64,000 bases of DNA from Escherichia coli (GTDB taxonomy: Bacteria; Pseudomonadota; Gammaproteobacteria; Enterobacterales; Enterobacteriaceae): NCBI RefSeq assembly GCF_003334815.1, contig NZ_QOWO01000013.1, one strand, 5' to 3'. The notes beneath the pieces were generated by a model that did no database searches, was not told the DNA's origin, and saw nothing but the letters and a program-made list of their open reading frames with translations. Shown piece after piece: positions 36,137 to 63,314 of this stretch (positions are counted from its first letter, which is position 1; every line of letters starts with the position of its first letter). Both the position numbers and the translations under genes were made by a program.

Positions 36137-36190
36137 ACTTAAAAAGCTCCACAGGTGAAGAAATGACTGGGCATGATACTGAAATCAGGT

Positions 36191-39368
<3,178 letters not shown>

Positions 39369-40483: not shown

Positions 40484-40526
40484 TGCCCACTCCATGTGAT
40501 ATCAATTGCAAAGAAAGTAAATCTGT

Positions 40527-40546
40527 AACTGTATTTATATACAGTT
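40527..40546. promoter_or_regulatory. LexA box upstream of dinD
   Basis: aaCTGTatttatatACAGtt fits CTGT-N8-ACAG; about 45 nt upstream of the dinD start. Confidence 0.75.
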
Positions 40547-40703
40547 GTGAGTATCTCACGTTCTCAGTGTGCTGGGCAAAAAAACATCGCAAAATCTGGA
40601 GCAGGCACGCAAAACAGAATTGAATGTTGCGGGGAAGAAAAATGCCGCTCTGTTTGAGTGGCGGCATTTGTGAAGGCGGAAAAGTAAGAATTGGCGTTAC
40701 GAG

Positions 40704-41567
40704 TTATTCGATGTTCTGAATCTGCTCGCGCATCTGCTCAATCAACACTTTCAGCTCGATGGCGGAGTTTGTCACTTCGGCATTGATAGACTTCGACGCA
40801 AGAGTGTTCGACTCGCGGTTGAACTCCTGCATCATAAAATCCAGACGACGACCAACCGCTTCTTTTTTCTTCAGAATGTTGTAGGTCTCTTTGACATGCG
40901 CTTCGAGGCGATCCAGTTCTTCGGCAACGTCAATTCGTTGTGCCAGCAGAACCAGTTCCTGCTCCAGACGGTTGTTTTCCAGTTGCACCTGAGCATCTTC
41001 CAGCTTCGCGACCAGACGCTCACGCTGCCATTGCAGGATTTCCGGCATATGGGAGCGGACTTTGACCACTTCGGCGGTGACGCCTTCCAGACGCTGCTCG
41101 ATCAATGCTTTCAGTGCCTGACCTTCGGTTTCGCGCGCGACAATAAAGTCGTCCAGCGTACCATCCAGCGCCGCGAGAATTTCAGCGGCAATGGCGTCAA
41201 GATCCTGCTCCTGGGCTGCCATCACGCCCGGCCAGCGTAGAATATCAACCGGGTTGATTTCCCCTTCGTCACTCTGCATTTTTACCCAGTTCGCGGCAGT
41301 TACCAGCTGTTTAGCCAGTTTTTCGTTGAGGATCAGCTCACCTTGCGCGCTAACATCTGGCTCATAGCGCAGGGTACATTCCACTTTACCGCGCGTCAGG
41401 CGAGAACGAATACGCTCGCGAACGACAGGTTCAAGGCTACGGAACTGCTCCGGCAGACGAAAGTAAGTTTCCAGATAACGCTGGTTTACCGAGCGCATTT
41501 CCCAGGTTGCGCTCCCCCATTCACCCTTGATTTCACGCCGGGCGTAGGCGGTCATACTGCGGATCAT
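40704..41567 (-). CDS. yicC: YicC-family stress-induced protein
   Basis: 287 aa. Confidence 0.9.
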   Translation of the reverse strand: MIRSMTAYARREIKGEWGSATWEMRSVNQRYLETYFRLPEQFRSLEPVVRERIRSRLTRGKVECTLRYEPDVSAQGELILNEKLAKQLVTAANWVKMQSDEGEINPVDILRWPGVMAAQEQDLDAIAAEILAALDGTLDDFIVARETEGQALKALIEQRLEGVTAEVVKVRSHMPEILQWQRERLVAKLEDAQVQLENNRLEQELVLLAQRIDVAEELDRLEAHVKETYNILKKKEAVGRRLDFMMQEFNRESNTLASKSINAEVTNSAIELKVLIEQMREQIQNIE

Positions 41568-41693
41568 AGACGTTCCTGTTTATAAAAGGAGAGGTGGAAG
41601 GATTATAGCCATCGATGCCTTGTCAGGATAGGAATAACCGCCGGAAGTCCGTATAATGCGCAGCCACATTTGTTTCAAGCCGGAGATTTCAAT

Positions 41694-42410
41694 ATGCGTC
41701 CAGCAGGCCGTAGCAATAATCAGGTGCGTCCCGTTACCCTGACTCGTAACTATACAAAACATGCAGAAGGCTCGGTGCTGGTCGAATTTGGCGATACCAA
41801 AGTGTTGTGTACCGCCTCTATTGAAGAAGGCGTGCCGCGCTTCCTGAAAGGTCAGGGCCAGGGCTGGATCACCGCAGAGTACGGCATGCTGCCACGTTCT
41901 ACCCACACCCGTAACGCTCGTGAAGCGGCGAAAGGTAAGCAGGGTGGACGCACAATGGAAATCCAGCGTCTGATCGCCCGTGCTCTTCGCGCGGCAGTAG
42001 ATTTGAAAGCGCTGGGTGAGTTCACCATTACGCTGGACTGCGACGTGCTTCAGGCTGATGGTGGCACGCGTACCGCGTCGATTACGGGTGCCTGCGTGGC
42101 GCTGGTAGATGCGCTACAGAAGCTGGTGGAAAACGGCAAGCTGAAAACCAATCCGATGAAAGGGATGGTAGCCGCAGTTTCTGTCGGAATTGTGAACGGC
42201 GAAGCGGTTTGCGATCTGGAATACGTTGAAGACTCTGCCGCAGAGACCGACATGAACGTAGTGATGACCGAAGACGGGCGCATCATTGAAGTGCAGGGGA
42301 CGGCAGAAGGCGAGCCGTTCACCCATGAAGAGCTACTCACCTTGTTGGCTCTGGCCCGAGGGGGAATCGAATCCATTGTAGCGACGCAGAAGGCGGCGCT
42401 GGCAAACTGA
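41694..42410 (+). CDS. rph: Ribonuclease PH, apparently full length
   Basis: 238 aa from [10 protein letters not shown]... to ...[18 protein letters not shown]; 5-G run at 42360..42364 keeps the frame open. Confidence 0.9.
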
Positions 42411-42415
42411 TTTTT

Positions 42416-42443
42416 AAGGCGACTGATGAGTCGCCTTTTTTTT
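42416..42443 (+). terminator. pyrE attenuator (rho-independent terminator)
   Basis: ggcgact-gatg-agtcgcc followed by 8 T, starting about 8 nt after the rph stop. Confidence 0.8.
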
Positions 42444-42475
42444 GTCTGTAGAAAAGTAAGATGAGGAGCGAAGGC

Positions 42476-43117
42476 ATGAAACCATATCAGCGCCAGTTTA
42501 TTGAATTTGCGCTTAGCAAGCAGGTGTTAAAGTTTGGCGAGTTTACGCTGAAATCCGGGCGCAAAAGCCCCTATTTCTTCAACGCCGGGCTGTTTAATAC
42601 CGGGCGCGATCTGGCACTGTTAGGCCGTTTTTACGCTGAAGCGTTGGTGGATTCCGGCATTGAGTTCGATCTGCTGTTTGGCCCTGCTTACAAAGGGATC
42701 CCGATTGCCACCACAACCGCTGTGGCACTGGCGGAGCATCACGACCTGGACCTGCCGTACTGCTTTAACCGCAAAGAAGCAAAAGACCACGGTGAAGGCG
42801 GCAATCTGGTTGGTAGCGCGTTACAAGGACGCGTAATGCTGGTAGATGATGTGATCACCGCCGGAACGGCGATTCGCGAGTCGATGGAGATTATTCAGGC
42901 CAATGGCGCGACGCTTGCTGGCGTGTTGATTTCGCTCGATCGTCAGGAACGCGGGCGCGGCGAGATTTCGGCGATTCAGGAAGTTGAGCGTGATTACAAC
43001 TGCAAAGTGATCTCTATCATCACCCTGAAAGACCTGATTGCTTACCTGGAAGAGAAGCCGGAAATGGCGGAACATCTGGCGGCGGTTAAGGCCTATCGCG
43101 AAGAGTTTGGCGTTTAA
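42476..43117 (+). CDS. pyrE: Orotate phosphoribosyltransferase
   Basis: 213 aa from [11 protein letters not shown]... Confidence 0.95.
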
Positions 43118-43124
43118 AGAAACT

Positions 43125-43148
43125 CGCCGGATGAAAAGTCATCCGGCG
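43125..43148. terminator. Hairpin between convergent pyrE and slmA
   Basis: cgccggatga-aaag-tcatccggcg perfect 10-bp stems. Confidence 0.5.
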
Positions 43149-43153
43149 TCATA

Positions 43154-43750
43154 TTACTGCAACTGTGCCGCAATTAGCGGCCAGCGGGCGTCAAAATCAT
43201 CCGTCGGGCGGTATTTAAATTCGCTGCGGACAAAACGTGACAGCATACCTTCACAGAAGGCCAGGATCTGGCTTGCCAGCAGGGTTTCATCGGTGGTGTA
43301 ACCTTCACCCTCACGCATTCTCTTTTCACGCAATACCTGGCGCAGCTGCGCTTCAATACGCTCGAACAGCTGGTTGATGCGCCCTTGCAGGCGATCCTGT
43401 TCAAACATTAGCGCATGACCAGTGAGGATGCGGGTCAGGCCAGGATTACGCTCACCAAAACCGAGAAGCAGCAACACAATCAGACGCAGGCGCGCTGTGG
43501 TGTCTTTCTCATCTTTCAGAATCAGGTTGATGCGAGTAATCAGGCTATCTTCGATAAACTCAATCAGGCTATCGAACATGCGGGTCTTACTGGGGAAGTG
43601 GCGATACAGTGCCGCTTCGGAAACGCCGACAGAGGCGGCCAGTTTTGCCGTCGTGATACGTTGGCTTCCATCGCTGGATTCCAGCATCAGCGCCAGAGAC
43701 TGAAGTATTTCCTCGCGACGGTTCCTTTTCGCAGTTTGTTTTTCTGCCAT
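43154..43750 (-). CDS. slmA: Nucleoid occlusion factor SlmA (TetR family)
   Basis: 198 aa from [16 protein letters not shown]... Confidence 0.9.
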
Positions 43751-43856
43751 GTTACAAAATACCCCTGAAAATAAGCACTTGCCAGGCGGCACCCACGCTA
43801 TGACCGCAAACGAAATGTTTGCGGCTATGTTATGACGTTATTCGGATGCGTATGTG

Positions 43857-44315
43857 CTACTGACGACCAGAGTGACCAAAGCCGCCTTCACCGCGGTCGG
43901 TGGCGTCGAAATCTTCCACCAGATTAAATTCAGCCTGTACTACCGGAACAAAAATCATCTGGGCGATGCGTTCGCCAGGTTGAATGGTGAAGCTGTCCTG
44001 ACCACGGTTCCACACGGAAATCATCAACTGGCCCTGATAGTCAGAATCGATCAATCCTACCAGGTTACCAAGCACGATACCGTGCTTATGTCCCAATCCG
44101 GAGCGCGGCAGCATCATTGCCGCCAGTGAAGGATCGGCAATATGAATCGCCAGCCCGGTCGGAACCAGCGTAGTGTCACCCGGAGCCAGTTCTACGGCGT
44201 CGTTGAGACAGGCACGCAGGTCAAGTCCGGCAGAGCCAGAGGTGGCATAAGTCGGGAGCGGAAATTCCTTCCCAACGCGCGGGTCCAGAATCTTAACGTC
44301 GATTTTTTTCATCAT
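43857..44315 (-). CDS. dut: dUTP diphosphatase
   Basis: 152 aa (MMKKIDVK...); a second Met gives 151 aa. Confidence 0.95.
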
Positions 44316-45513
44316 AACGGGTCACGATCTCGTCGAGTAATAATTGGCCAAGGAGCTCTTTGCGCTCAAGCGGTAAGACTTTATCTCCGTCCTGCCAGAA
44401 AAGGTGTAATGCGTTGTTGTCGCTGTTAAATCCTTGAGTTGGCTGGGAAACATCGTTCGCGCAGATCAGATCAAGGTTTTTACGGATACGTTTTTGCCGG
44501 GCGTATTCTTCCACATTATTTGTTTCGGCGGCAAATCCAACGACGTAGGGTCGATGGTCTTTTAGTGCGGCAACGCCTGCGACGATATCGGGGTTTTTAA
44601 CCATTTTTATTGTTAATTCATCACCCTGCGTGGCCTGCTTTTTGATTTTCTCTGGGGCCACGGTAGCTGCGCGATAATCCGCCACGGCGGCGCAGCCGAT
44701 AAAAATATTTTGCTGCTGTACAGAAGCATTCACGGCGGCTTCCATTTCCAGCGCGGTCATCACATCAACACGTTTAACAAACGGTGGCGTCGGTAGTGAA
44801 ACCGGACCTGATACCAGCGTGACGTTCGCGCCACGACGGGCAGCGGCGGCGGCGATAGCAAAACCCATCTTGCCGGAGCTGTGATTAGAGATATAACGCA
44901 CCGGATCGAGCGGTTCACGCGTCGGGCCGGCGGTAATCATAATGTTCAGATGTTTCAGGTCGTTGACGGGCGAAAAATGCGCTACCGCCATATCCACAAT
45001 GGTTAACGGATCGAGCATTCGCCCAGGACCGATATCACCACAAGCCTGACTGCCACTGTCTGGCCCCCAGATGAGCAAACCACGGGAAGCAAGCACCTCT
45101 AAATTATGCTGCGTGGCAGCGGCACGGTACATCTGCTGGTTCATGGCGGGGAGCACGGCTACAGGCGCAGGTGTAGCCAGACAAATCGTCGATACCAGGT
45201 CATTCGCCATTCCGGCAGCAACACGGGCAATCAAATCTGCCGTGGCAGGGGCGAGAATCACTAAATCAGCCCATTTACCCAGCTCAATATGGCCCATAGC
45301 GGCTTCGGCTGCCGGGTCCAGCAGACTGTCGGAAACGGGATAACCAGAAACCGCCTGCAAGCTAAGTGGGGTGATAAAGGCTTTTGCCGCTTCGGTCATG
45401 GCTACGCGGACGTCGGCCCCGCGATCGCGCAAACGACGCACCAGTTCAGGGGTTTTATAGGCAGCAATACCGCCGCTAACGCCGAGAACGATTTTTTTAC
45501 CGGCCAGGCTCAT
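44293..45513 (-). CDS. coaBC: Bifunctional phosphopantothenoylcysteine decarboxylase / synthetase
   Basis: 406 aa from [20 protein letters not shown]...; 3' end overlaps the dut start. Confidence 0.95.
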
Positions 45514-45684
45514 GATGATTTTTCCTGTAGGGTGACACCAGAAGTTGGCGATTTTATCACAATACTTTTGTTGTCGTGCCTTCACCTGAGATTCACTTTG
45601 CGAGGCGCTTTCCAGGATTGAAAACTGGCCGTCGATTTAACGAAACGGCTATGACAGGATGCGAGCACCACAAAGGAGGTGAAG

Positions 45685-46353
45685 GTGAAAAACAATTCAC
45701 AGCTGTTGATGTCGCGCGAAAAAATGCTGAAGTTTGGTATTAGCGCCTTAACGGATGTCGAGCTGCTGGCGCTATTTCTGCGTACCGGAACGCGCGGTAA
45801 AGATGTATTAACCCTGGCAAAAGAGATGCTGGAGAATTTCGGCTCTCTTTATGGCTTGTTAACCTCTGAATATGAACAATTTAGTGGCGTTCATGGAATT
45901 GGCGTGGCGAAATTTGCCCAGTTAAAGGGGATTGCTGAACTGGCGCGGCGTTACTACAACGTGCGGATGCGTGAAGAAAGCCCTTTACTCAGCCCGGAGA
46001 TGACGAGGGAATTTTTACAAAGCCAGCTCACGGGTGAGGAGCGGGAGATCTTTATGGTGATCTTTCTCGACTCCCAACACCGGGTTATAACGCATAGGCG
46101 TCTTTTTTCCGGCACGCTAAACCATGTTGAAGTCCATCCTCGGGAAATTATCCGCGAAGCGATAAAAATAAACGCCTCGGCGCTGATCCTTGCACATAAT
46201 CACCCTTCGGGTTGTGCTGAACCCAGTAAAGCGGATAAACTCATTACTGAACGGATAATAAAGAGTTGTCAGTTCATGGATTTACGCGTGCTCGACCATA
46301 TCGTGATTGGGCGTGGAGAGTATGTTTCTTTTGCCGAACGCGGCTGGATTTAA
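45685..46353 (+). CDS. yicR: RadC-like JAB-domain protein (UPF0758)
   Basis: AAGGAGG Shine-Dalgarno then GTG at 45685; in-frame GTG also at 45679; HNHPSG JAMM-like motif. Confidence 0.85.
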
Positions 46354-46548
46354 CCCGCTATGCGCGATCCTTCGGGATCTTTGTCTGTTCGGGACTTGAG
46401 CACATCGCTGAGTCAGCGTATACTACGCCACCTTTGAGAATCTCGGGTTTGGCATTTGGGCCTGGCAATCGAGAGTTCACATAGAACTGCGATGACCGGG
46501 CTGTAAAGCCTGACGAGGCGCCAATACCCCATACGAAGCTCGAGCTAA

Positions 46549-46806
<258 letters not shown>

Positions 46807-46823
46807 GTACTTAGAGGAAATAA

Positions 46824-46994
<171 letters not shown>

Positions 46995-47015
46995 TTCTCG
47001 CTTTGATGTAACAAA

Positions 47016-47049
47016 AAACCTCGCTCCGGCGGGGTTTTTTGTTATCTGC
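47016..47049 (+). terminator. rpmBG terminator
   Basis: ccucgc-uccg-gcgggg stem with one G-U pair, followed by a 6-U run; 34-nt identical to 5095..5128. Confidence 0.7.
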
Positions 47050-47091
47050 TTGCCCCCATATTGACTGCATCTGTTCATTCCTGGAGATGCT

Positions 47092-47901
47092 ATGCCTGAA
47101 TTACCCGAAGTTGAAACCAGCCGCCGCGGCATAGAACCGCATCTCGTTGGTGCAACCATTCTTCATGCAGTGGTGCGCAACGGACGCTTGCGCTGGCCGG
47201 TTTCAGAAGAGATCTACCGTTTAAGCGACCAACCAGTGCTTAGCGTGCAGCGGCGGGCTAAATATCTGCTGCTGGAGCTGCCTGAGGGCTGGATTATCAT
47301 TCATTTAGGGATGTCTGGCAGCCTGCGCATCCTTCCAGAAGAACTTCCCCCTGAAAAGCATGACCATGTGGATTTGGTGATGAGCAACGGCAAAGTGCTG
47401 CGCTACACCGATCCGCGCCGCTTTGGTGCCTGGCTGTGGACCAAAGAGCTGGAAGGGCATAATGTGCTGACCCATCTTGGACCGGAGCCGCTTAGCGACG
47501 ATTTCAATGGTGAGTATCTGCATCAGAAGTGCGCGAAGAAAAAAACGGCGATTAAACCGTGGCTGATGGATAACAAGCTGGTGGTAGGGGTAGGGAATAT
47601 CTATGCCAGCGAATCACTGTTTGCGGCGGGGATCCATCCGGATCGGCTGGCGTCATCACTGTCGCTGGCAGAGTGTGAATTGTTAGCTCGGGTGATTAAA
47701 GCGGTGTTGCTGCGTTCGATTGAGCAGGGTGGTACAACGCTGAAAGATTTTCTGCAAAGTGATGGTAAACCGGGCTATTTCGCTCAGGAATTGCAGGTTT
47801 ACGGGCGAAAAGGTGAGCCGTGTCGGGTGTGCGGTACGCCGATTGTGGCGACTAAACATGCGCAGCGGGCAACGTTTTATTGTCGGCAGTGCCAGAAGTA
47901 A
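47092..47901 (+). CDS. mutM: Formamidopyrimidine-DNA glycosylase
   Basis: 269 aa; N-terminal PELPEVE; C-terminal zinc finger CxxC...CxxC. Confidence 0.95.
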
Positions 47902-47910
47902 TTCATGCGC

Positions 47911-47932
47911 GCCGGATGGCATACCATCCGGC
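47911..47932. terminator. Hairpin between convergent mutM and coaD
   Basis: gccggatgg-cata-ccatccggc perfect 9-bp stems. Confidence 0.4.
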
Positions 47933-47939
47933 ATAAACG

Positions 47940-49704
<1,765 letters not shown>

Positions 49705-50022
49705 AGTAAATAGCTGACTTATGGATGTGCTGGGGATTCTATGTATTTAGCTGTGGCTTTACCATTACTTTTCCCGTTTTTGACTTAAATAGCTTCAGTT
49801 TGGTCTGATCTGCCGCTACATCTTCTTTTTTTTGTATTTTTATGCGATTCATTGAAACTCGGCCCCATTTTCAAATCTACATAGGCCGTACTGACATTAT
49901 CGAAATGCTATTTTTTATCTATTTGATTTTTATGATTAAAGTATATTTTGTGTATAAAAATCATTCGGGTCGGATTGCTGCGAAAGAAATGATACACTAG
50001 CACGTCAAAGTAAGTGCGTTAT

Positions 50023-50061
50023 CAGTATTCAGGTAGCTGTTGAGCCTGGGGCGGTAGCGTG
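50023..50061 (+). promoter_or_regulatory. JUMPStart element containing the ops site (RfaH loading)
   Basis: Exact GGCGGTAGCGTG at 50050..50061 in the waaQ leader. Confidence 0.8.
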
Positions 50062-50144
50062 CTTTATTCTGCTTAACTTAACCAGACAATCACACAAAAG
50101 AGTCGCTAGTGGAAAAGCCATTTCGAAAAATCCTGGTCATAAAG

Positions 50145-52300: not shown

Positions 52301-53090
52301 ATTAAAAGAGCCGCTTGCCACACTTTGGCGTGGTAAAGATGCTTTTGCAGAGGTCAAAAAACTGAACGGCGAGGTCTTTCGTGAACTGGAGACTCGTCGT
52401 ACATTACGCTTTGAACTGTCCGGGAAAAGCTATTTTCTTAAATGGCACAAGGGGACGACATTAAAAGAGATTATAAAAAATCTACTCTCATTGCGGATGC
52501 CCGTTTTGGGCGCAGACAGAGAGTGGCACGCTATTCATCGCCTGAGTGATGTTGGCGTTGATACAATGAAGGGCATTGGGTTTGGCGAAAAAGGGTTAAA
52601 TCCATTAACTCGCGCATCATTTATTATTACCGAAGATCTCACTCCCACAATTAGCCTTGAAGATTATTGTGCCGATTGGGCAGTCAACCCGCCTGATATA
52701 CGTGTTAAGCGTATGCTGATCGCACGTGTAGCAACTATGGTGCGTAAAATGCATACTGCAGGGATAAATCACCGCGACTGTTACATTTGCCACTTTTTGC
52801 TTCATTTGCCATTTACTGGCCGGGAAGATGAATTAAAAATTTCAGTTATCGATCTGCATCGGGCACAGATACGTGCAAAAGTACCGCGCCGCTGGCGCGA
52901 TAAAGACCTGATTGGTTTATATTTCTCATCAATGAATATTGGCCTGACGCAAAGAGATATCTGGCGATTTATGAAGGTTTATTTTGGGATGCCTTTACGC
53001 AAAATATTGTCTCTTGAACAGAATTTATTGAACATGGCAAGCGTTAAGGCCGAGCGTATTAAAGAGCGAACACAACGCAAAGGATTATAA
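52293..53090 (+). CDS. waaP: LPS core heptose(I) kinase
   Basis: 265 aa; 8-nt overlap with waaG. Confidence 0.95.
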
Positions 53091-53126: not shown

Positions 53127-54062
53127 ATGACTATTTATTTTATAAATTGGGTTGCAGATTATGAATTAAAAATGATTCAGTACCTGAAAAAAAAGTACAA
53201 GATAAAAAATATAACAACACCAAAAAAATATAACTGGATTAATAAAAAAATATCAAAAATAGGGATGGATAATGCATGGCTGGGGCGATTATTCATCAAG
53301 CATTACCTCAATGATATTAAAAAAGATGACATAATTATCATTAATGACAGTGTTGTTAATAAAGGTATCAATAAACAAATATTAAAAAATATTAACTGTC
53401 ATAAAGTTTTGCTTCTAAGAAATACTGTTGGCGAAGATTTTATTCTTGATAACGCGAATTATTTCGATATTATATATGATTTTGAGCATAGATTTATAGG
53501 GAATGAAAAGATCAAGGCAATAGAACAATTTTTTCCTATAGGAATGGATGAAATTAGAAATTATAGTTTATCTGACAAAAATAACAGCCAGCCAATATGT
53601 TTTTTCCTTGGTCGTGATAAAGGGCGTCTTCAAATAATTAATGAGTTAGCCGAGAGATTAACAACACTAGGATGTAAGCTAGATTTTAATGTTGTCAAAG
53701 ATAAGACATCATCTACGACTTCAAAGTATTTGATTGAAAAACAAATATCTTATGAAGAGAATATTAGAAGAACATTAAATGCTAATATAATTGTTGATAT
53801 AACCAAAGAAAACCAATCTGGCTGGACTCTTCGTATACTTGAGGCACTATTTTTCAATAAAAAATTAATTACTAATAATATAAATGTATTTGGTTCAGAA
53901 ATCTATAGTGAATCTCGCTTTTTTATAATAGGTCATGATGATTGGGATAAGTTAGAGTATTTTATTAACTCATCTGTTAAACCAATGGATTATGATAGTT
54001 TATATAAATTCAGTCCAGATAAAATGATGTCAACGATTGTTTCTGATTTTATAGACAAATAA
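53127..54062 (+). CDS. waaS: LPS core biosynthesis protein WaaS (K-12 core type)
   Basis: 311 aa; very AT-rich. Confidence 0.8.
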
Positions 54063-54105
54063 AACCGTTAAAACAGTGAGTTTTACTCAATTAATGAGAG
54101 TTTCT

Positions 54106-55185
54106 ATGAAAATAGCGTTTATCGGCGAAGCTGTTTCTGGATTTGGCGGCATGGAAACTGTCATCCGTGATGTTATTACTACCTTCAGGCAACAACATAT
54201 CCAAAGTGAAATGTTTTTCTTTTGTCGTAATGACAAAATGGATAAGGGATGGCTGGAAGGTATTAAATACTCATGTTCATTTTCCAATATTCGTTTAGGT
54301 TTTTTGCGTCGGGCGAAACATATTCATGCTCTAAGTAAATGGCTTCAGGAGTACCAACCAGATATCGTTATTTGTATTGATGTGATCTCCTGCCTGTTTG
54401 CCGCAAAAGCACGTAAAAAATCAGGAATTGATATGCCAGTATTTTCATGGCCACATTTTTCTTTAGATCACAAAAAACATGCTGAATATATCACCTGTGC
54501 CGACTATCATTTAGCAATCAGCTCTGGCATTAAACAGCAAATGATTAATCGAGGTGTAGCAGAATCGACGATAAATGTTATTTTTAATCCCGTCGAAACT
54601 AAAGACTCAGTCATTCCCGCGCCCGAGGAAGGTGAAACGGCAACGTTTATTTATGTTGGGCGTATGAAATTTGAAGGCCAGAAAAGAGTTAAAGACCTGC
54701 TTGATGGCTTATCACAAGCGAAAGGTAACTGGAAACTCCATGTATTGGGTGATGGCTCCGATTTCGAAAAATGCCAGGCTTATGGTAGAGAATTAAATAT
54801 TGATGATCGAATTGTCTGGTATGGTTGGCAACAATATCCCTGGGAATTGGTCCAGCAAGATATTGAAAAAGTGAGTGCGTTATTGCTCACGTCATCTTTT
54901 GAAGGTTTCCCAATGACCCTACTTGAAGCCTTGTCGTGGGGGATTCCTTGTATCAGTGCCGATTGTGTCTCCGGGCCTGCTGACATTATTCAACCTGATG
55001 TCAATGGCCATCTGTATCAACCGGGAGATATTGCTGGTTTTGTAACTCTTCTAAATAAATATATAGCAGGTGAAATTCATATCGAACATGAAAAAATTCC
55101 TGCGTCGATCGATGAATTTTACCAATCGAAGTATTACGATAGATTACATAAGGTAATTATTTCTGCTATTTCCCGGAGGAAATAA
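54106..55185 (+). CDS. waaB: LPS alpha-1,6-galactosyltransferase
   Basis: 359 aa from MKIAFIGEAV... Confidence 0.85.
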   Translation: MKIAFIGEAVSGFGGMETVIRDVITTFRQQHIQSEMFFFCRNDKMDKGWLEGIKYSCSFSNIRLGFLRRAKHIHALSKWLQEYQPDIVICIDVISCLFAAKARKKSGIDMPVFSWPHFSLDHKKHAEYITCADYHLAISSGIKQQMINRGVAESTINVIFNPVETKDSVIPAPEEGETATFIYVGRMKFEGQKRVKDLLDGLSQAKGNWKLHVLGDGSDFEKCQAYGRELNIDDRIVWYGWQQYPWELVQQDIEKVSALLLTSSFEGFPMTLLEALSWGIPCISADCVSGPADIIQPDVNGHLYQPGDIAGFVTLLNKYIAGEIHIEHEKIPASIDEFYQSKYYDRLHKVIISAISRRK

Positions 55186-56204
55186 TGCAGCAGGTGTTTT
55201 TCCAGGAAACTGAGTTTCTTAATTCAGTTATTGATTATGATCATAAAGTAGAAACAGAAAATCTTTGTCTGGACATCGCTTATGGAACTGACAAAAACTT
55301 TCTATTTGGTTGCGGAATTTCGATTGCTTCAATATTAAAATATAATGAAGGAAGTCGATTGTGTTTCCATATTTTTACTGATTATTTTGGTGATGATGAT
55401 CGTAAGTATTTTGATGCCCTGGCGTTGCAGTATAAAACCAGAATTAAAATATATCTGATTAATGGTGATCGACTGCGCTCATTGCCTAGCACTAAGAATT
55501 GGACTCATGCAATATATTTTCGTTTTGTTATTGCAGATTACTTTATTAATAAGGCGCCTAAAGTCCTTTATCTGGATGCAGATATCATTTGTCAGGGGAC
55601 TATTGAGCCACTAATTAATTTCTCATTTCCTGACGATAAAGTCGCAATGGTTGTTACAGAAGGGCAAGCTGACTGGTGGGAAAAACGCGCCCATTCGTTA
55701 GGTGTTGCGGGAATTGCTAAAGGTTACTTTAACTCCGGTTTTTTATTGATTAATACTGCCCAATGGGCGGCTCAGCAGGTTTCTGCACGAGCTATTGCAA
55801 TGCTAAATGAGCCAGAAATAATCAAAAAAATAACACATCCTGATCAGGATGTGTTAAATATGTTGCTGGCGGATAAACTTATTTTCGCTGATATTAAATA
55901 TAACACCCAGTTCAGCTTAAATTATCAACTCAAAGAAAGCTTTATAAACCCAGTAACCAACGATACTATTTTTATCCATTATATCGGGCCAACCAAGCCC
56001 TGGCATGATTGGGCCTGGGATTATCCTGTATCACAAGCCTTTATGGAGGCAAAAAATGCTTCGCCATGGAAGAATACGGCGTTGCTGAAACCGAACAATA
56101 GCAATCAATTAAGATATAGCGCAAAACATATGCTTAAAAAGCATAGATATCTAAAAGGATTTAGCAACTATCTTTTTTATTTTATTGAAAAGATAAAGCA
56201 TTAA
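55185..56204 (+). CDS. waaO: LPS alpha-1,3-glucosyltransferase (GT8)
   Basis: 339 aa; TAATG overlap with waaB. Confidence 0.85.
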   Translation: MQQVFFQETEFLNSVIDYDHKVETENLCLDIAYGTDKNFLFGCGISIASILKYNEGSRLCFHIFTDYFGDDDRKYFDALALQYKTRIKIYLINGDRLRSLPSTKNWTHAIYFRFVIADYFINKAPKVLYLDADIICQGTIEPLINFSFPDDKVAMVVTEGQADWWEKRAHSLGVAGIAKGYFNSGFLLINTAQWAAQQVSARAIAMLNEPEIIKKITHPDQDVLNMLLADKLIFADIKYNTQFSLNYQLKESFINPVTNDTIFIHYIGPTKPWHDWAWDYPVSQAFMEAKNASPWKNTALLKPNNSNQLRYSAKHMLKKHRYLKGFSNYLFYFIEKIKH

Positions 56205-56243
56205 AACTGGGAAACTATAAAGTAATGATATAAGGGTAGCATT

Positions 56244-57260
56244 GTGGACTCATTTCCTGCCATAGAGATAGATAAAGTTAAAGCCTGGGATTTTCGGCTA
56301 GCTAATATAAATACTTCTGAATGTTTAAATGTTGCCTATGGTGTCGATGCTAATTATCTTGATGGTGTAGGTGTTTCCATCACATCAATTGTCCTAAATA
56401 ATCGATATATTAATCTTGATTTTTATATTATTGCTGATGTTTATAATGATGGTTTTTTTCAAAAAATTGCAAAGCTTGCAGAGCAAAACCAATTAAGAAT
56501 CACGTTATATAGAATTAACACTGATAAGCTCCAGTGCTTGCCTTGTACACAGGTCTGGTCAAGAGCAATGTACTTCCGTTTATTTGCATTTCAATTATTG
56601 GGTTTAACGCTTGATCGTTTGCTTTATCTTGATGCAGATGTTGTTTGTAAAGGCGATATTAGCCAACTATTACATCTGGGTTTAAATGGAGCGGTTGCTG
56701 CTGTTGTTAAAGATGTTGAGCCAATGCAAGAAAAGGCGGTATCCAGGTTGTCTGATCCTGAATTACTTGGGCAGTACTTTAATTCCGGTGTCGTTTATTT
56801 AGACTTAAAAAAATGGGCTGACGCAAAACTAACAGAAAAAGCGTTGTCTATTCTTATGAGTAAAGATAATGTTTATAAATACCCTGATCAGGATGTTATG
56901 AATGTCTTACTGAAAGGGATGACATTATTTTTGCCTCGTGAGTACAATACAATTTATACAATTAAAAGTGAATTAAAAGACAAAACACATCAAAACTATA
57001 AAAAGCTGATTACAGAAAGTACTCTTCTTATTCATTATACAGGTGCAACTAAACCGTGGCACAAATGGGCAATTTATCCATCGGTAAAATACTATAAAAT
57101 AGCTTTAGAAAATTCCCCCTGGAAAGATGACTCTCCACGAGATGCGAAATCAATTATTGAATTTAAAAAAAGATATAAACATCTTTTAGTGCAACATCAT
57201 TATATCTCAGGAATTATAGCAGGAGTCTGTTATCTTTGCCGAAAATATTACCGTAAATAA
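56244..57260 (+). CDS. waaJ: LPS alpha-1,2-glucosyltransferase (GT8)
   Basis: 338 aa; GTG start; paralogous to waaO. Confidence 0.85.
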   Translation: MDSFPAIEIDKVKAWDFRLANINTSECLNVAYGVDANYLDGVGVSITSIVLNNRYINLDFYIIADVYNDGFFQKIAKLAEQNQLRITLYRINTDKLQCLPCTQVWSRAMYFRLFAFQLLGLTLDRLLYLDADVVCKGDISQLLHLGLNGAVAAVVKDVEPMQEKAVSRLSDPELLGQYFNSGVVYLDLKKWADAKLTEKALSILMSKDNVYKYPDQDVMNVLLKGMTLFLPREYNTIYTIKSELKDKTHQNYKKLITESTLLIHYTGATKPWHKWAIYPSVKYYKIALENSPWKDDSPRDAKSIIEFKKRYKHLLVQHHYISGIIAGVCYLCRKYYRK

Positions 57261-57277
57261 CATTTAACTGGTTTATT

Positions 57278-57976
57278 ATGATTCAGAAGAGCAAGATCAA
57301 AGACTTGGTTGTTTTTACCGATGAAAACAATTCAAAGTACCTCAATGTATTAAATGACTTCTTGTCTTATAATATAAATATCATCAAGGTTTTTCGTTCT
57401 ATTGATGATACAAAAGTTATGCTTATTGATACCGATTACGGTAAATTGATTCTTAAGGTTTTTTCTCCGAAAGTTAAGCGTAACGAACGTTTCTTTAAGT
57501 CTCTGTTAAAAGGTGATTATTACGAACGCCTTTTTGAGCAAACCCAAAAAGTACGAAATGAAGGGTTAAATACACTCAATGACTTTTATTTATTGGCTGA
57601 ACGGAAAACCTTACGTTTTGTCCATACTTATATCATGATCATCGAGTATATTGATGGCATAGAGTTGTGTGATATGCCCGATATTGATGATGCGCTAAAA
57701 AATAAAATTCAGCAATCAATTAATGCCTTACATCAACATGGCATGGTTTCTGGCGACCCCCATCGTGGTAACTTCATTATAAAAAATGGTGAGGTTCGAA
57801 TTATCGATCTCTCCGGAAAGCGTGCTTCAGCGCAGCGTAAAGCGAAAGATCGTATTGACTTAGAGCGTCATTACGGTATTAAAAATGAGATTAGAGATCT
57901 AGGCTATTATCTTTTAGTATATCGTAAAAAAATGCGCAATTTTATTCGGCGTTTGAAAGGGAAACCAGCGCGCTAA
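57278..57976 (+). CDS. waaY: LPS core heptose(II) kinase
   Basis: 232 aa. Confidence 0.85.
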   Translation: MIQKSKIKDLVVFTDENNSKYLNVLNDFLSYNINIIKVFRSIDDTKVMLIDTDYGKLILKVFSPKVKRNERFFKSLLKGDYYERLFEQTQKVRNEGLNTLNDFYLLAERKTLRFVHTYIMIIEYIDGIELCDMPDIDDALKNKIQQSINALHQHGMVSGDPHRGNFIIKNGEVRIIDLSGKRASAQRKAKDRIDLERHYGIKNEIRDLGYYLLVYRKKMRNFIRRLKGKPAR

Positions 57977-58046
57977 AAAAAATCCCACAATTACATGTCT
58001 TCACCAGGACAGTTTTAAGCGGAGTTATTTATTTCACAGGTTTATC

Positions 58047-58898
58047 ATGAAGAATATTAGATACATTGACAAAAAAGATGTTGAAAACCTGATTGAAAAT
58101 AAAACATCTGATGATGTTATTATTTTTCTTTCGGGCCCTACATCGCAAAAAACACCTTTGTCAGTATTACGAACAAAGGATATTATTGCTGTCAATGGTT
58201 CTGCGCAATATCTGTTAAGTAATAATATCGTTCCTTTTATATATGTACTTACAGATGTCCGATTTTTACATCAGCGTCGTGATGATTTTTATAAATTTAG
58301 CCAGAGAAGTCGTTATACCATAGTAAACGTTGACGTTTATGAACACGCTTCCAAAGAAGATAAACTTTATATCCTCCAGAACTGCCTCGTATTACGGTCC
58401 TTTTACCGTCGGGAAAAAGGTGGTTTTATAAAGAAGATTAAATTTAATATTTTGAGACAGATTCACAAAGAACTGCTGATCTCTGTACCGTTGTCTAAAA
58501 AAGGTCGTCTGGTTGGATTTTGCAAGGACATTAGTCTTGGTTATTGCTCATGCCATACTATTGCCTTTGCTGCAATTCAAATCGCATATTCACTTAAGTA
58601 TGCGCGGATTATTTGTTCTGGTCTTGATTTAACGGGTAGCTGTTCTCGTTTCTATGATGAGAATAAAAATCCCATGCCCTCGGAATTAAGTAGGGATTTA
58701 TTCAAAATATTGCCATTTTTTCGTTTTATGCATGATAATGTAAAAGATATTAATATTTATAATTTATCAGATGATACAGCTATTTCTTACGATGTAATTC
58801 CATTTATTAAACTTCAAGACATCAGTGCAGAAGAATCAAAAGATATGACAAGAAAAAAAATGCAATATAGAACTTCAACCGATTCTTATGCTAATTAA
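58047..58898 (+). CDS. waaZ: LPS core biosynthesis protein WaaZ
   Basis: 283 aa. Confidence 0.8.
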   Translation: MKNIRYIDKKDVENLIENKTSDDVIIFLSGPTSQKTPLSVLRTKDIIAVNGSAQYLLSNNIVPFIYVLTDVRFLHQRRDDFYKFSQRSRYTIVNVDVYEHASKEDKLYILQNCLVLRSFYRREKGGFIKKIKFNILRQIHKELLISVPLSKKGRLVGFCKDISLGYCSCHTIAFAAIQIAYSLKYARIICSGLDLTGSCSRFYDENKNPMPSELSRDLFKILPFFRFMHDNVKDINIYNLSDDTAISYDVIPFIKLQDISAEESKDMTRKKMQYRTSTDSYAN

Positions 58899-58930
58899 TC
58901 ATCCTGAAACTAAAATAATATGGTATAAAA

Positions 58931-60004
58931 ATGCGCTTAGGAACTTTTCACAAAAAGAAAAGATTTTATATAAACAAAATCAAGATTAATTTCCTTTCTT
59001 TTTTATTTCGTAATAAAATAAATAATCAAATTACAGATCCAGCACAAGTTAAATCATGCCTTATTATTCATGATAATAATAAACTTGGTGATCTAATTGT
59101 ATTAAGTTCGATTTATCGTGAACTTTATAGTAAAGGGGTTAAAATAACTCTTCTCACAAATAGAAAGGGTGGGGAATTTCTCTCTAATAATAAAAATATA
59201 TTTGAGTTCTGTATTAAAGAATCAACCGGTTTTCTTGAAATGCTTACTCTATGTAAGCATCTGCGGGATTTACAGTTCGATATTGTATTAGACCCCTTTG
59301 AAACTATGCCCTCATTTAAGCATAGCTTAATATTATCAAGTTTAAAAGATTCTTACATTCTGGGTTTTGATCATTGGTATAAGCGTTACTATTCATTTTA
59401 CCATCCCCACGATGAATGTTTAAAAGAACATATGAGTACACGAGCAATAGAAATACTGAAGCATATTTATGGTGAGGGTAAATTTTCCACCAACTACGAC
59501 TTGCATTTACCAGTAGATGTTGAAGATAAAATAAAAGAATTTATTGGAGATACAAGAATAGTCATTATTAATCCATTAGGTGCAAAAAAAATATGCCGTC
59601 TTACGTTTGAGCAAATAAAAGTTATATATCAAGAAGTGAAAACACACTTTGAAAATTATCGGATTATATTTACCGGGTTACCGCAAGATTTATTGACAAT
59701 ACCAATACTTGAAATCGAAACACTACCATTTGATGAGTTTATTTATACCGTTGCGTTGACCAAGTATAGTGATTTTGTCATTTCTGTTGATACAGCTCTT
59801 GTTCATATCGCTGCGGCTTATCATAAACCAACGCTTGCATTTTACCCTAATTCACGTACTCCGGAATATCCCTCGCATTTAATTTGGTCCCCGAATCATC
59901 ATAAATCTATACAAATAGTATCCCCAACATATACGGTAAAAGATATCGATACTGAAACTTTAACTAATTCAGTAAAGAGATTAAGTTGTATAGATAAGAA
60001 GTGA
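58931..60004 (+). CDS. waaU: LPS heptosyltransferase IV
   Basis: 357 aa. Confidence 0.8.
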   Translation: MRLGTFHKKKRFYINKIKINFLSFLFRNKINNQITDPAQVKSCLIIHDNNKLGDLIVLSSIYRELYSKGVKITLLTNRKGGEFLSNNKNIFEFCIKESTGFLEMLTLCKHLRDLQFDIVLDPFETMPSFKHSLILSSLKDSYILGFDHWYKRYYSFYHPHDECLKEHMSTRAIEILKHIYGEGKFSTNYDLHLPVDVEDKIKEFIGDTRIVIINPLGAKKICRLTFEQIKVIYQEVKTHFENYRIIFTGLPQDLLTIPILEIETLPFDEFIYTVALTKYSDFVISVDTALVHIAAAYHKPTLAFYPNSRTPEYPSHLIWSPNHHKSIQIVSPTYTVKDIDTETLTNSVKRLSCIDKK

Positions 60005-60022
60005 GTTTTAACTCACTTCTTA
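59997..60022. terminator. Palindrome between convergent waaU and waaL
   Basis: aagaagtgagtt-tt-aactcacttctt perfect 12-bp stems, overlapping the waaU stop codon. Confidence 0.5.
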
Positions 60023-60035
60023 AACTTGTTTATTC

Positions 60036-61295
60036 TTAATTAATTGTATTGTTACGATTATTAATGACGAGTAAGAGGACTATAGCGGATATAATGATAA
60101 TTGGAATGCTGCGTGCCCATATGATCACATCACTGAGTCCAATCCCCACAATGCCAAGCGTTAATATCAACAAACCCAAAGCTCGTTTTTTATATGCTAT
60201 ATAAAATAGTGAAAAATAGAGGAAAAGTGTGGAAAAAATTCCCATCAGACCTTTCAGTGACCCTGCTTCAATTATCTCATTATGTAGATGTACGTTAGAA
60301 AACTCCAATGCCCCTCTTAGCCTATTGTGTTCTGCAACTAACAAATTCATACTTTCAGCGCGTGACTCTGCTGATCTAAATGAAAAAGGTGACTTTATGA
60401 ATATATTTAAACCAATTTCGTACATTGCCAGTCTTGCACCTAGGGAAGTAACACTATTAGCATTGGTATAACTGTTTAAGTCATTTAATGCTTCATTATA
60501 GCGATTCTGTATTGGTTTATTAAATATAATAACAATGCTAGCTAATATAGCAATTAGTAGAACAATAGAGGAAGTGAATTTCTTGGGTGATTTATTATAA
60601 TAAGCTATTAATGCAGCAACACAAATTATAGGGAACAGGAGTAGGGTTGCTCTGGTTTGTGTTAGCGCCAGAACATAAAGTACCGCGCAACTATTTAATA
60701 AAAATAAAAAAGGATGATTTTTCTTAGTATAAAGAATCGCAACGCCACTAACTATCCCTATTAGCATTGTTGAATATGCTGCTCCTGTTGCCGTTCCTAC
60801 ACCAAAAGAAATGCGGTCATTTTCATGAATGCTATTAATATACATTGCATATCCAGCAATTAGAAATGACAGAGAATACAAAGTGTATAATACACTCTCT
60901 TTTTTTGATTTTAGCTGGCTAGTTAGTGTCAAGAAAACAATAAAAGAACCAAATATAAATATTTTGGCAGTATTTAAATAACTATGGTAAGTAGCACGAA
61001 ATGGCGAATTATCTACTTTAAACGCAGAATACCAAATTAAATCAAGCAAGCCTATTAAAAATATAGAAAGGGGAAGAATAAGGTTTTTTATATTATAATT
61101 TTCTTGTCTGCCACGTAAAATTAGTGACAATAAGCAAACTATAGCAGTGATATTATATATTTTTATGCTGAAAGTATTATCGACGAATGCAATTATCATT
61201 GAAAAAAAACATAATATATAAGTTATTATCTCTAAAATCATTGATGATTTCAGAGTGTAAGGTTTCAATGAATGAAGTTTAAAGGATGTTAGCAT
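60036..61295 (-). CDS. waaL: O-antigen ligase
   Basis: 419 aa polytopic membrane protein. Confidence 0.9.
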   Translation of the reverse strand: MLTSFKLHSLKPYTLKSSMILEIITYILCFFSMIIAFVDNTFSIKIYNITAIVCLLSLILRGRQENYNIKNLILPLSIFLIGLLDLIWYSAFKVDNSPFRATYHSYLNTAKIFIFGSFIVFLTLTSQLKSKKESVLYTLYSLSFLIAGYAMYINSIHENDRISFGVGTATGAAYSTMLIGIVSGVAILYTKKNHPFLFLLNSCAVLYVLALTQTRATLLLFPIICVAALIAYYNKSPKKFTSSIVLLIAILASIVIIFNKPIQNRYNEALNDLNSYTNANSVTSLGARLAMYEIGLNIFIKSPFSFRSAESRAESMNLLVAEHNRLRGALEFSNVHLHNEIIEAGSLKGLMGIFSTLFLYFSLFYIAYKKRALGLLILTLGIVGIGLSDVIIWARSIPIIIISAIVLLLVINNRNNTIN

Positions 61296-61304: not shown

Positions 61305-62264
61305 TTATAATGATGATAACTTTTCCAAAACTGCTTGACTGTTGAGGTTAATTAAATTTTCTCTTGGAGCCCTACATACCATCTGATTCTTCCCATACCC
61401 ACCAATTAATCCCGGATCGGTTGGTCCATAAACCGTGATATTGGGTCTATCCAGTGCCGCCGTTAAATGGCTTAACCCCGTATCCACCGACACTACAAAT
61501 TTAGCCCCGGCCAGCACGCGGGCAACGCCTTCCAGACTCATCTTCGGCAATACTTCAACATAAGCAAATCCTTCCGCCAGTCGTTTCGCCCGTTCTTCCT
61601 CATGCGGCGCGCCCCACGGAAGTTTAATCCGTATTCCTGAATCAGCCAGTAAACCAATCAATTCTCGCCAGTGTTCTTCCGGCCAGTGTTTATCATCACG
61701 GGTCGTCGCATGAAGAAATACGGCATATTCGCCAGCATCTGTAGGCAGGTTCGTCAGAAAATGCTGTGCGATAGCATAATCGCCCTGGGTTTGCGGTTTG
61801 CTATAGCCCAAACTTTTGGCAAACAGTTCGCGGGTGCGTTCTACGGCGTGCTGCTGTTTTGCAATATGATGCTTACGATTGTAAAACAGGCTGGCTAAAG
61901 GTTCGCGAGCGGTTTGCCAGTCCATGCCATGCTTTACGCCATGCGCCAGACGCGTCACCAGCGCCGCGCTTTTTACCAGCCCCTGAGCGTCGATAACTGC
62001 GTCATAGTTCTCTGCTTGTAGCGCTTCACGAAACGCTTTGCGTTCCGCTTTTATGGGGGCCGAGAACCAGGCTTTACGCCAGCGACGTATTGCCACAGGA
62101 ATAACTCGCTCAACGGCAGCGTGCCAGGAAGGAATCTGTGCGAACCCTTCTTCCACCACCCAGTCAAACTTAATCCCTGGGATTGCCTGCTGGGCATCAG
62201 TGAGTGCGGGCAACGTATGGAGAACATCGCCCATCGACGATGTTTTAACGATCAAAACCCGCAT
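61305..62264 (-). CDS. waaC: LPS heptosyltransferase I
   Basis: 319 aa MRVLIVKTSSMGDVLH... Confidence 0.95.
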   Translation of the reverse strand: MRVLIVKTSSMGDVLHTLPALTDAQQAIPGIKFDWVVEEGFAQIPSWHAAVERVIPVAIRRWRKAWFSAPIKAERKAFREALQAENYDAVIDAQGLVKSAALVTRLAHGVKHGMDWQTAREPLASLFYNRKHHIAKQQHAVERTRELFAKSLGYSKPQTQGDYAIAQHFLTNLPTDAGEYAVFLHATTRDDKHWPEEHWRELIGLLADSGIRIKLPWGAPHEEERAKRLAEGFAYVEVLPKMSLEGVARVLAGAKFVVSVDTGLSHLTAALDRPNITVYGPTDPGLIGGYGKNQMVCRAPRENLINLNSQAVLEKLSSL

Positions 62265-62267
62265 CCG

Positions 62268-63314
62268 TCAGGCTTCCTCTTGTAACAATAGCGCGTTGAG
62301 TTCTTCCAGTACGCGCTGGGGAGTAATGTCGATTAAGCTCTGGTGATAACCCTCCGCAGCGTCACCTTTACGCACTTTGTGATAGCCGGTAATCAAACGG
62401 ATCACGCGCGCTTTATGGGATAGCGGCGGTGTGAAGTCCGGGCTACTCGGACCATACAGGGCAACCAGCGGACGATTGAGCGCCGCCGCAACATGCATCA
62501 GGCCAGAATCGTTAGTGACAATGGCTTTACAGGCTGCAATCAGGATAACCGCTTGATCAAGCTGTGTTTCCCCCGCCAGGTTCCGACACCATGCCTGCTG
62601 CTCGGTATTCAAAGCGGCAAGAATCTCATTGCCCGCTTCATGATCTTTCGCCGAGCCAAACAGAACCACCTGATAACCTTCATCAATCAGCTGCTTTGCC
62701 AGCTCCGCATAGTGGTAGTGTGGCCAGCGTTTTGCCGGACCAAACTCCGCACCCGGGCAAAAACCAATCATCGGACGTTCTGATGAAAGCGAAAATTGAT
62801 TACAGGTATATGATTTTTCACCTTCGCTCACCTGCAACTGCGGCCATAACAATGGCTGCGGCAGATCTTGTGCTGTGCGCATAATGCCTTTGTCATAGGC
62901 CAGCGCTATATAGCGTTCCACCATTAGCGGCCAGGCTTCTTTATCGAGCACGCGTACATCGTTGAGTAAACCGTAGCGCATCTCGCCGCGCCAGCCGGTG
63001 CGATGAGGAATACCCGCGAAGAAAGGCACTAATGCAGATTTGAAGGAGTTGGGTAAGACGTAGGCGCGGTCGTAGCGCTTTTCACGCAGGCTATGACCCA
63101 GTTTGCGGCGTTCGCCGATTTCCAGCGCTCCGTGACCGAGAGGCATAGGAATAGCTTCGTTAACTTCCGGCATCCGCGATAATAATGGACGGCACCATGC
63201 CGGTGCCATCACATCGATTATCGCCTGGGGATAGCGCGCCTGGAGCGTGCGATAGAGACTTTGCGACATCATCATGTCGCCAACCCAAGACGGGCCGATC
63301 ACCAGTATTTTCAT
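62268..63314 (-). CDS. waaF: LPS heptosyltransferase II
   Basis: 348 aa. Confidence 0.95.
   Translation of the reverse strand: MKILVIGPSWVGDMMMSQSLYRTLQARYPQAIIDVMAPAWCRPLLSRMPEVNEAIPMPLGHGALEIGERRKLGHSLREKRYDRAYVLPNSFKSALVPFFAGIPHRTGWRGEMRYGLLNDVRVLDKEAWPLMVERYIALAYDKGIMRTAQDLPQPLLWPQLQVSEGEKSYTCNQFSLSSERPMIGFCPGAEFGPAKRWPHYHYAELAKQLIDEGYQVVLFGSAKDHEAGNEILAALNTEQQAWCRNLAGETQLDQAVILIAACKAIVTNDSGLMHVAAALNRPLVALYGPSSPDFTPPLSHKARVIRLITGYHKVRKGDAAEGYHQSLIDITPQRVLEELNALLLQEEA

Follow-up and report, generated by a model that had tools for sequence, protein, structure and literature searches.

The waa (rfa) locus for the lipopolysaccharide (LPS) core of Escherichia coli K-12 MG1655 is the closest described relative of the region studied here, positions 53127-61295 of a 64,000-nt window of E. 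coli contig NZ_QOWO01000013.1 (assembly GCF_003334815.1), and it is like the window in genes, gene order and strands. In 2021, the G+C of the waa locus was reported to be at the core-genome level in waaDFC and waaA, slightly lower in waaQGP and markedly lower in the central variable loci, remnants of phages, insertion sequences (IS) and transposons were found to be absent, and horizontal gene transfer was attributed to homologous recombination (PMC8715443). The AT-rich outer-core cassette and its reading as an exchanged unit, both proposed in an initial annotation of the window made from the sequence alone, are correct and already known from that study. The O-antigen (rfb) and group 2/3 capsule clusters of the Enterobacteriaceae are established parallels, being likewise low-G+C polymorphic polysaccharide cassettes between conserved flanks that are exchanged by homologous recombination, carry JUMPStart/ops leaders and depend on RfaH (PMC6358824, PMC9765446). 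They differ in having far more alleles, with >180 O types versus five core types, and the waa cassette, unlike them, carries a ligase that must fit both the core and the O-unit.

We identify the region with high confidence as the outer-core segment of the K-12 waa locus of E. coli, one of five exchangeable cassettes, with a base composition that is old; nothing was found that contradicts this identification. Positions 49000-64000 were 100.0% (rounded) identical in DNA to many E. coli K-12 strains across 15 kb. The MG1655 record matched at 99.96% over 16.5 kb, with five substitutions and one 1-nt indel (sites 48201, 49826, 50066, 56406, 57946 and 58105); the non-synonymous differences (waaJ H55Y, waaY M223I and waaZ I20T) gave no sign of an effect on function, and a T>A change lies 5 nt 3′ of the ops site. 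The gene order waaQ-G-P-S-B-O-J(R)-Y-Z-U with a convergent waaL, between waaA and waaC-waaF-hldD, is that of the K-12 type. RefSeq annotation of the matching DNA lists waaA, rfaQ, rfaG, rfaP, rfaS, waaB, waaO, rfaJ, rfaY, waaZ, waaU, rfaC, rfaF and rfaD, and waaL is annotated over the same open reading frame (ORF) in other K-12-type records. The type-specific waaS, waaU and waaL are intact, with ORFs of 311, 357 and 419 amino acids (aa), and are absent from the R1-R4 loci or have <35% identity there. The gene names and the K-12 core type given initially were therefore right, as judged by the match to MG1655, the annotation, NCBIfam and Pfam (Table 1). Besides the convergent waaL, the block holds seven members of the long waaQ operon (waaS, B, O, J, Y, Z and U). 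Its products extend and decorate the LPS core past the first glucose (Glc) and attach the O-antigen, with the enzyme activities taken from the literature. Gene content and the literature (PMC13293308) together point to the K-12 core structure, with a Glc-Glc-Glc backbone and galactose (Gal) and heptose IV (HepIV) branches.

By exact count, the block has 33.3% G+C, which agrees with the low-30s value initially estimated by eye, and the lowest-G+C 8169-nt window of the entire 64 kb starts at 53100, that is, at the waaS-waaL block itself. In 500-nt windows, the backbone had a mean G+C of 0.520 (standard deviation (sd) 0.043) versus 0.337 in the block, where the maximum was 0.414. A maximum-likelihood segmentation over the whole window, blind to genes, placed breakpoints at 49701, 52901 and 61376, separating tiers of 52.0, 43.9, 33.3 and 52.6% G+C. 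The flanks had been put at about 50%, which holds for waaA and waaC/waaF (51-54%) but not for waaQGP, an intermediate tier of 44.3%. Likewise, the steps expected at the waaP/waaS and waaL/waaC boundaries do exist, but they are located within genes: the left one lies ~200 nt before waaS, within waaP, and the right one ~70 nt past waaL, within the 3′ end of waaC. Codon usage follows the same pattern. The G+C at third codon positions was 0.23-0.35 in the eight block genes, compared with the 38 backbone ORFs of the window, which averaged 0.58 (sd 0.057) and went no lower than 0.455. On a codon index derived from these 38 ORFs, waaL (0.48), waaU (0.54) and waaS (0.54) all fell under the backbone minimum of 0.577, and the remaining block genes (0.57-0.62) and waaQGP (0.58-0.63) were close to or at the lower end of the backbone range; Sharp and Li weights, which are indicative only, gave the same ranking with waaL, waaU and waaS lowest. 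The sliding G+C and codon calculations suggested at the outset thus both brought out a strongly AT-rich block with atypical codon usage in its genes.

The composition breakpoints match the homology breakpoints (49794, 52865-52986 and ~61362) rather than the gene boundaries. The homology breakpoints were obtained by comparing the window with a K-12-type locus of an ST131-like (sequence type 131) strain (L002, NZ_CP196276.1), an R2 locus (L003), two R1 loci (L004 and L006), an R4 locus (L005) and the R3 locus of an O157:H7 strain (L007). On the left, all core types are 96-100% identical in DNA through waaA and on to position 49793; K-12/R2 and R1/R3/R4 are identical to this position and diverge from 49794, in the waaA-waaQ intergenic region. 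Similarity at the left end of the cassette stops within waaP, at 52986 for R1/R3/R4 and at 53000 for R2, and resumes on the right at 61348-61384, 57 nt into the waaC reading frame (BLAST), all core types being alignable only from about 61362 (GGAGCCCTACA). In the loci compared, WaaC was between 318 and 330 aa long. The location of the junctions inside conserved genes points to homologous recombination, as was likewise concluded in PMC8715443. The proposed brackets of conserved inner-core genes consequently stand on the right, with waaC/waaF; on the left, waaQGP (44% G+C and two diverged classes) has to give way to waaA.

The waaQGP genes are constant in gene content, not in sequence, and fall into two classes, K-12/R2 and R1/R3/R4. 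DNA identity between K-12 and R1/R3/R4 was 64-72% for waaQ and 74-82% for waaG/waaP, and protein identity was 73% for WaaQ, 90% for WaaG and 84% for WaaP. Within the classes, K-12 and R2 had about 90% DNA identity, and R1, R3 and R4 were 98-100% identical to one another. The WaaQ of K-12 is closer to that of Salmonella (79% aa identity) than to that of the E. coli R1 class (73%).

Unrelated or partly related cassettes occupy the same site in the other core types with the same G+C tiers, so that the comparison with R1-R4 proposed in the initial annotation came out in its favour. All of the compared loci had about 54% G+C in waaA, 44-47.5% in waaQGP, 33-35% in the outer block and about 52% in waaC-F-hldD. 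The K-12 block itself is a mosaic: waaS and the stretch from the 3′ end of waaZ through waaU to waaL are K-12-specific, and waaB-waaO-waaJ-waaY-waaZ are common to K-12 and R2, with 86-88% DNA and 88-92% protein identity. The R2 and Salmonella enterica loci resemble the window in that waaQGP is followed by an AT-rich block and this by a convergent waaL, with the same G+C tiers, and they share waaB, O(I), J, Y and Z with it (88-92% aa identity for R2 and 54-71% for Salmonella). They differ in carrying a glycosyltransferase family 8 (GT8) gene in place of waaS and waaK, for an N-acetylglucosamine transferase, in place of waaU, and their ligase has no relation to the K-12 WaaL at E < 1e-3. The GT8 gene at the waaS position (4126-5106 in the R2 locus L003 and 5984-6988 in the Salmonella Infantis locus L009) has no detectable similarity to waaS, and with 29.8% G+C it is the minimum of its locus in Salmonella. 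The R1/R3/R4 loci are like the window in chromosomal site, G+C tiers and conserved ops/JUMPStart; waaO, waaY and a GT8 paralogue (waaJ) have distant counterparts there (40-58% aa identity), and these are the only ones. Their cassettes are shorter (5.2-6.1 kb) and without waaS, B, Z and U, their waaQGP belongs to the other allelic class (64-82% DNA identity), and in R1 and R4 the ligase lies on the operon strand.

Movement of the cassette between lineages is proved by a recombinant haplotype, not by base composition. In the ST131-like strain, waaQGP (1119-4125 of L002) is 98-100% identical to that of the R1 loci and the outer block is 95.8% identical to that of K-12; the switch from R1 class to K-12 class, with >100 informative sites, is located at 52865-52869, a few sites as far as 52925 being mixed. 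By megablast against 5426 complete E. coli genomes, the full block was found in 1032 (19%), about 566 of which carry the chimeric haplotype and about 459 the K-12-proper haplotype. A further ~484 genomes had matches of about 87% to waaB-waaZ only, which is the R2 pattern, and the remaining ~3900 had no megablast match to the block. This distribution, the alternative cassettes R1-R4 at the same site and the natural chimera bear out the initial description of an exchanged, type-defining cassette. An association of the ST131 complex (STc131) with the K-12 core was reported in 2021 (PMC8715443) and K-12/R2 hybrids in 2025 (PMC13293308). Lineages exchange the five alternative cassettes (K-12, R1, R2, R3 and R4) through homologous recombination in the flanks that they have in common. 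The left crossover can fall at any point between waaA and the 3′ end of waaP, and the right crossover falls in waaC. The force that maintains the alternatives is presumably selection by phages, immunity or predators.

The JUMPStart element and its ops site in the waaQ leader (Table 1) are kept in all core types despite the diverged leader around them, as seen in the alignment. The 12-nt ops lies within JUMPStart, in the leader, on the operon strand and upstream of the first gene, an arrangement that fits the known control by RfaH anti-termination. The waaQ operon reaches its full expression only when RfaH is recruited at this site of its leader, distal expression falls on rfaH deletion, and the leader yields the small RNA RirA as well (PMC6358824). 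In strain CFT073, H-NS is found on the rfaQ/waaG operon, and RfaH acts as an elongation counter-silencer (PMC9765446). With 33.3 vs 52% G+C and dense promoter-like sites, the block has the sequence features of H-NS-silenced xenogeneic DNA. Transcription across about 10 kb of AT-rich DNA, rich in promoter-like sites, would then rely on RfaH loaded at ops/JUMPStart, which would suppress Rho termination and H-NS-mediated pausing, the RfaH dependence and H-NS binding being drawn from the literature. A scan for terminator-like structures found 10 candidates versus 8.5 in shuffled sequences, which is no excess; only the hairpin between waaU and waaL is structurally notable, and it is likely a bidirectional terminator.

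The AT-richness had initially been taken as the usual signature of import. On the one hand, a recent import from a low-G+C donor, with the donor composition preserved before amelioration, would agree with the sharp G+C steps, with the strongly atypical codon usage that is most extreme in the K-12-specific waaS, waaU and waaL, and with the patchy distribution within the species. On the other hand, the three-tier profile is found in all five core types and in Salmonella (waaA 54.9, waaQGP 47.8, outer block 36.8 and waaC/F 55-58% G+C), even though the cassettes have only 64-71% protein identity or no relation at all. Furthermore, when substitutions in waaB-waaZ were polarised between the two K-12-type haplotypes with R2 as the outgroup, 76 AT>GC and 78 GC>AT changes were counted, which is balanced at the present G+C and does not show the AT>GC excess of an ameliorating import. 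The implied equilibrium G+C of the block is 0.34 (approximate 95% interval 0.27-0.42) vs 0.347 at present; for the flank the corresponding values are 0.38 and 0.53. No mobile-element traces were found by annotation, Rfam or repeat search, and the central region is reported to have no DNA-level homologue outside Escherichia and Shigella (PMC8715443). Given the same tiers in five core types and Salmonella and the balanced substitutions, the AT-richness is no evidence of recent import, and we consider such an origin unlikely. The low G+C would instead be an old, stable property of the locus in Enterobacteriaceae rather than the scar of a recent import, and the substitution pattern is indicative, though only that, of a block composition that is old and stable.

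Several points limit these secondary claims on composition and regulation. The equilibrium estimate comes from 154 changes in 4.7 kb, two haplotypes and an outgroup that is 12% diverged, and mis-polarisation and recombination could bias it, so it is indicative only. The H-NS binding was shown in CFT073 on an R1-class waaQG allele, not in the K-12 block. Moreover, the 48 promoter-like sites in the AT-rich region, compared with 5 in an equal length of backbone (11.9 kb each), are matched by composition-matched shuffles (48 vs 48.9) and hold no information beyond AT-richness.

An account without any horizontal exchange, in which the core types are vertically inherited ancient alleles and the low G+C results from local mutation bias, weak selection and weak expression, appears very unlikely. 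It could draw on the closeness of the block equilibrium (0.34) to the mutational equilibrium that polymorphisms in the flank imply (0.38) and on a waaQ divergence that is larger within the species than between E. coli and Salmonella. The clean switch at 52865-52869 in the chimera refutes it, and strains with the K-12 core include ST131 (phylogroup B2) as well as K-12-like ones, in addition to the reported K-12/R2 hybrids; the compositional part of the account may nevertheless hold and is compatible with an old, exchangeable cassette. An origin of the block as a site-specific genomic island or mobile element, driven by an integrase or transposase or borne by a phage or plasmid, is extremely improbable: two 'Campylobacter phage' records and several 'plasmid' records match at 100%, but this apparent support does not survive inspection, the locus lacks a tRNA, integrase, IS and flanking repeats, and the junctions lie within conserved genes, as expected under homologous recombination.

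The searches behind this last statement covered the locus annotation, which contained no integrase or IS; Rfam at E <= 0.1 over 49000-64000, which returned JUMPStart alone and no tRNA; and flanking repeats, of which none was found, only short imperfect AT-rich two-copy repeats being present and none of them at the junctions. The locus thus shows none of the features of a classical genomic island or integrative element (integrase or transposase, tRNA and direct repeats). Plasmid carriage was rejected, the matching records being chromosomes of 4.8-4.9 Mb or contigs of 1.9-9.8 kb. Five records of the plasmid collection PLSDB with a chromosomal waa locus (NZ_OL790696.1, NZ_CP134663.1, NZ_CP141089.1, CP061233.1 and NZ_CP051612.1) are 4.8-4.9 Mb long, one 1.0 Mb, and look like mislabelled chromosomes, and the 1907-bp 'plasmid' recorded for an ST131 strain is a mere waaU-waaL fragment. 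Phage carriage was rejected as well: the matches were UNVERIFIED 'Campylobacter phage' records of E. coli DNA and Salmonella chromosomal contigs. The record MG065686.1 ('UNVERIFIED: Campylobacter phage A18a', L008) is collinear with window positions 33126-64000 over 30.9 kb at 99.96%, and E. coli K-12 DNA in such records most likely stems from contamination or from mislabelling of the assembly. Both MG065686.1 and MG065691.1 (A11a) are unannotated and ~174 kb long; A18a alone was examined beyond the match.

For the old, exchangeable outer-core cassette, three refinements can be put forward tentatively, and that all three hold together is possible rather than probable. First, the AT-richness may be a long-term equilibrium at about 34% G+C, near the mutational equilibrium of the neighbouring backbone genes, in which case low G+C would be useless for dating or inferring import at the waa locus. 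Second, the waaQGP allelic classes may be at least as old as the split between E. coli and Salmonella, and if they are, the exchangeable unit may be the entire waaQ operon from 49794, promoter region included. Third, the K-12 core of the pandemic ST131 lineage may be a chimera joined within waaP, in which case the C-terminal ~75 residues of WaaP and ~19 residues of WaaC would travel with the outer-core type. These details (the waaP/waaC junctions, the waaQGP classes, the ST131 chimera and the balanced spectrum) may have been stated elsewhere, and the overall picture remains the same.

Which O-antigens can be ligated depends on the core type, and phages, colicins, antibodies, lectins such as DC-SIGN and protist predators encounter it as a receptor or a barrier. 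Knowledge of the cassette and of the junctions at which it is exchanged is hence relevant to typing, phage therapy and vaccine design, as is established for the waa locus. The value of the present analysis is mainly corrective: the brackets are waaA and waaC/waaF, the junctions lie within waaP and waaC, and the proof of exchange is the recombinant haplotype.

Table 1. Features of the waa locus in the window (aa id., amino-acid identity of the encoded protein; Kdo, 3-deoxy-D-manno-octulosonic acid; GT9, glycosyltransferase family 9)
Feature	Position	Strand	G+C (%)	Evidence and remarks
Window left of the waaQ operon	1..49704		52.0	
waaA, Kdo transferase	48427..49704	-	53.9	ORF, annotation; true conserved left bracket
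Onset of deeply diverged zone	49794..50108	+		waaQ promoter/leader region
JUMPStart	50023..50061	+		Rfam RF01707, 55.2 bits vs gathering score 35, E = 1.5e-10
ops site GGCGGTAGCGTG	50050-50061	+		sole ops match in 64 kb; 48 nt upstream of waaQ start
waaQ	50109-51179	+	44.3 (waaQGP)	two deep allelic classes
waaG	51176-52300	+	44.3 (waaQGP)	two deep allelic classes
waaP	52293-53090	+	44.3 (waaQGP)	two deep allelic classes
Left cassette junction	52865..52986	.		3′ quarter of waaP; G+C breakpoint 52901
waaS	53127..54062	+	26.8	NCBIfam WaaS/CpsH family, 179 bits; most AT-rich gene; no R1-R4 counterpart
waaB, LPS 1,6-galactosyltransferase	54106..55185	+	39.4	NCBIfam equivalog, 611 bits; annotation; start as in RefSeq, ORF reaches upstream to GTG at 54076; aa id. 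92% to R2, 64% to Salmonella
waaO, GT8 outer-core hexosyltransferase	55185..56204	+	36.2	NCBIfam equivalog NF011718, 582 bits; aa id. 88% to R2, 51-57% to R1/R3/R4
waaJ (rfaJ; waaR in other nomenclature), GT8	56244..57260	+	33.7	annotation; NF011718 272 bits, below cut-off; aa id. 35% to paralogue WaaO, 90% to R2
waaY, heptose II kinase	57278..57976	+	35.2	NCBIfam equivalog, 400 bits; aa id. 92% to R2, 53-58% to R1/R3/R4
waaZ, Kdo III transferase	58047..58898	+	32.6	NCBIfam equivalogs, 555 and 480 bits; R2 similarity stops at 58811
waaU, GT9 heptosyltransferase IV	58931..60004	+	31.0	Pfam Glyco_transf_9, 1.7e-6; annotation; K-12-specific, no full-length counterpart in other core types compared
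Perfect 12-bp-stem hairpin	59995..60022	.		between convergent waaU and waaL; terminator-like scan
waaL, O-antigen ligase	60036..61295	-	31.9	Pfam Wzy_C, 3.6e-13; K-12-specific allele; most atypical codon usage; aa id. 30-31% to R1/R4 ligases, no match to R2/R3
yibY	60094-60204	+		36 aa; antisense to waaL; annotated in MG1655, intact in window
yibX	60229-60471	+		80 aa; antisense to waaL; annotated in MG1655, intact in window
Type-specific AT-rich waaC 3′ tail, right junction	61305..61361	-		last ~19 codons; G+C breakpoint 61376
Conserved waaC part and waaF	61362..63314	-	51-54 (waaC 51.0, waaF 53.7)	true right bracket; 96-100% DNA identity across types

Some minor observations concern individual genes and strains. 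The NCBIfam name of WaaO, '3-alpha-galactosyltransferase', is taken from the Salmonella enzyme, the K-12 enzyme being described as a glucosyltransferase. A direct repeat of 30 nt with 80% identity (55839-55868 and 56883-56912, 1044 nt apart) reflects the paralogy of the adjacent GT8 genes waaO and waaJ (35% aa identity), and an old tandem duplication is suggested by it. Translation of the ORFs antisense to waaL has experimental support from a ribosome-profiling study, in which the YibX and WaaL proteins, encoded on opposite strands of the same DNA, were detected under the same conditions (bioRxiv 10.1101/511675); the MG1655 record NZ_CP032667.1 lists yibY and yibX and has no waaL coding-sequence row over this DNA. 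The window alleles at 50066, 56406 and 57946 are absent from the ST131-type locus too, and the environmental or food isolates TB06053 and 160-11H1 match the window slightly better than laboratory K-12 strains do. Natural damage or insertions in waa loci were seen in NZ_CP178240.1, NZ_CP124424.1 and L004 (8998-10250): the K-12-like strain JW-5 has an IS5 insertion within the block, about 780 nt of additional DNA are present in one ST131-type locus, and the R1 enterotoxigenic E. coli strain (L004) has a frameshifted ligase gene.

Elsewhere in the window, a 400-nt island at 21276-21676 has 30.8% G+C, with setC on one side and, on the other, a rhuM pseudogene remnant next to tRNA-Sec (selC), a classic island-integration site. 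The stretch of ~14100-24200, from adeQ to setC, is slightly low in G+C, at ~47%.

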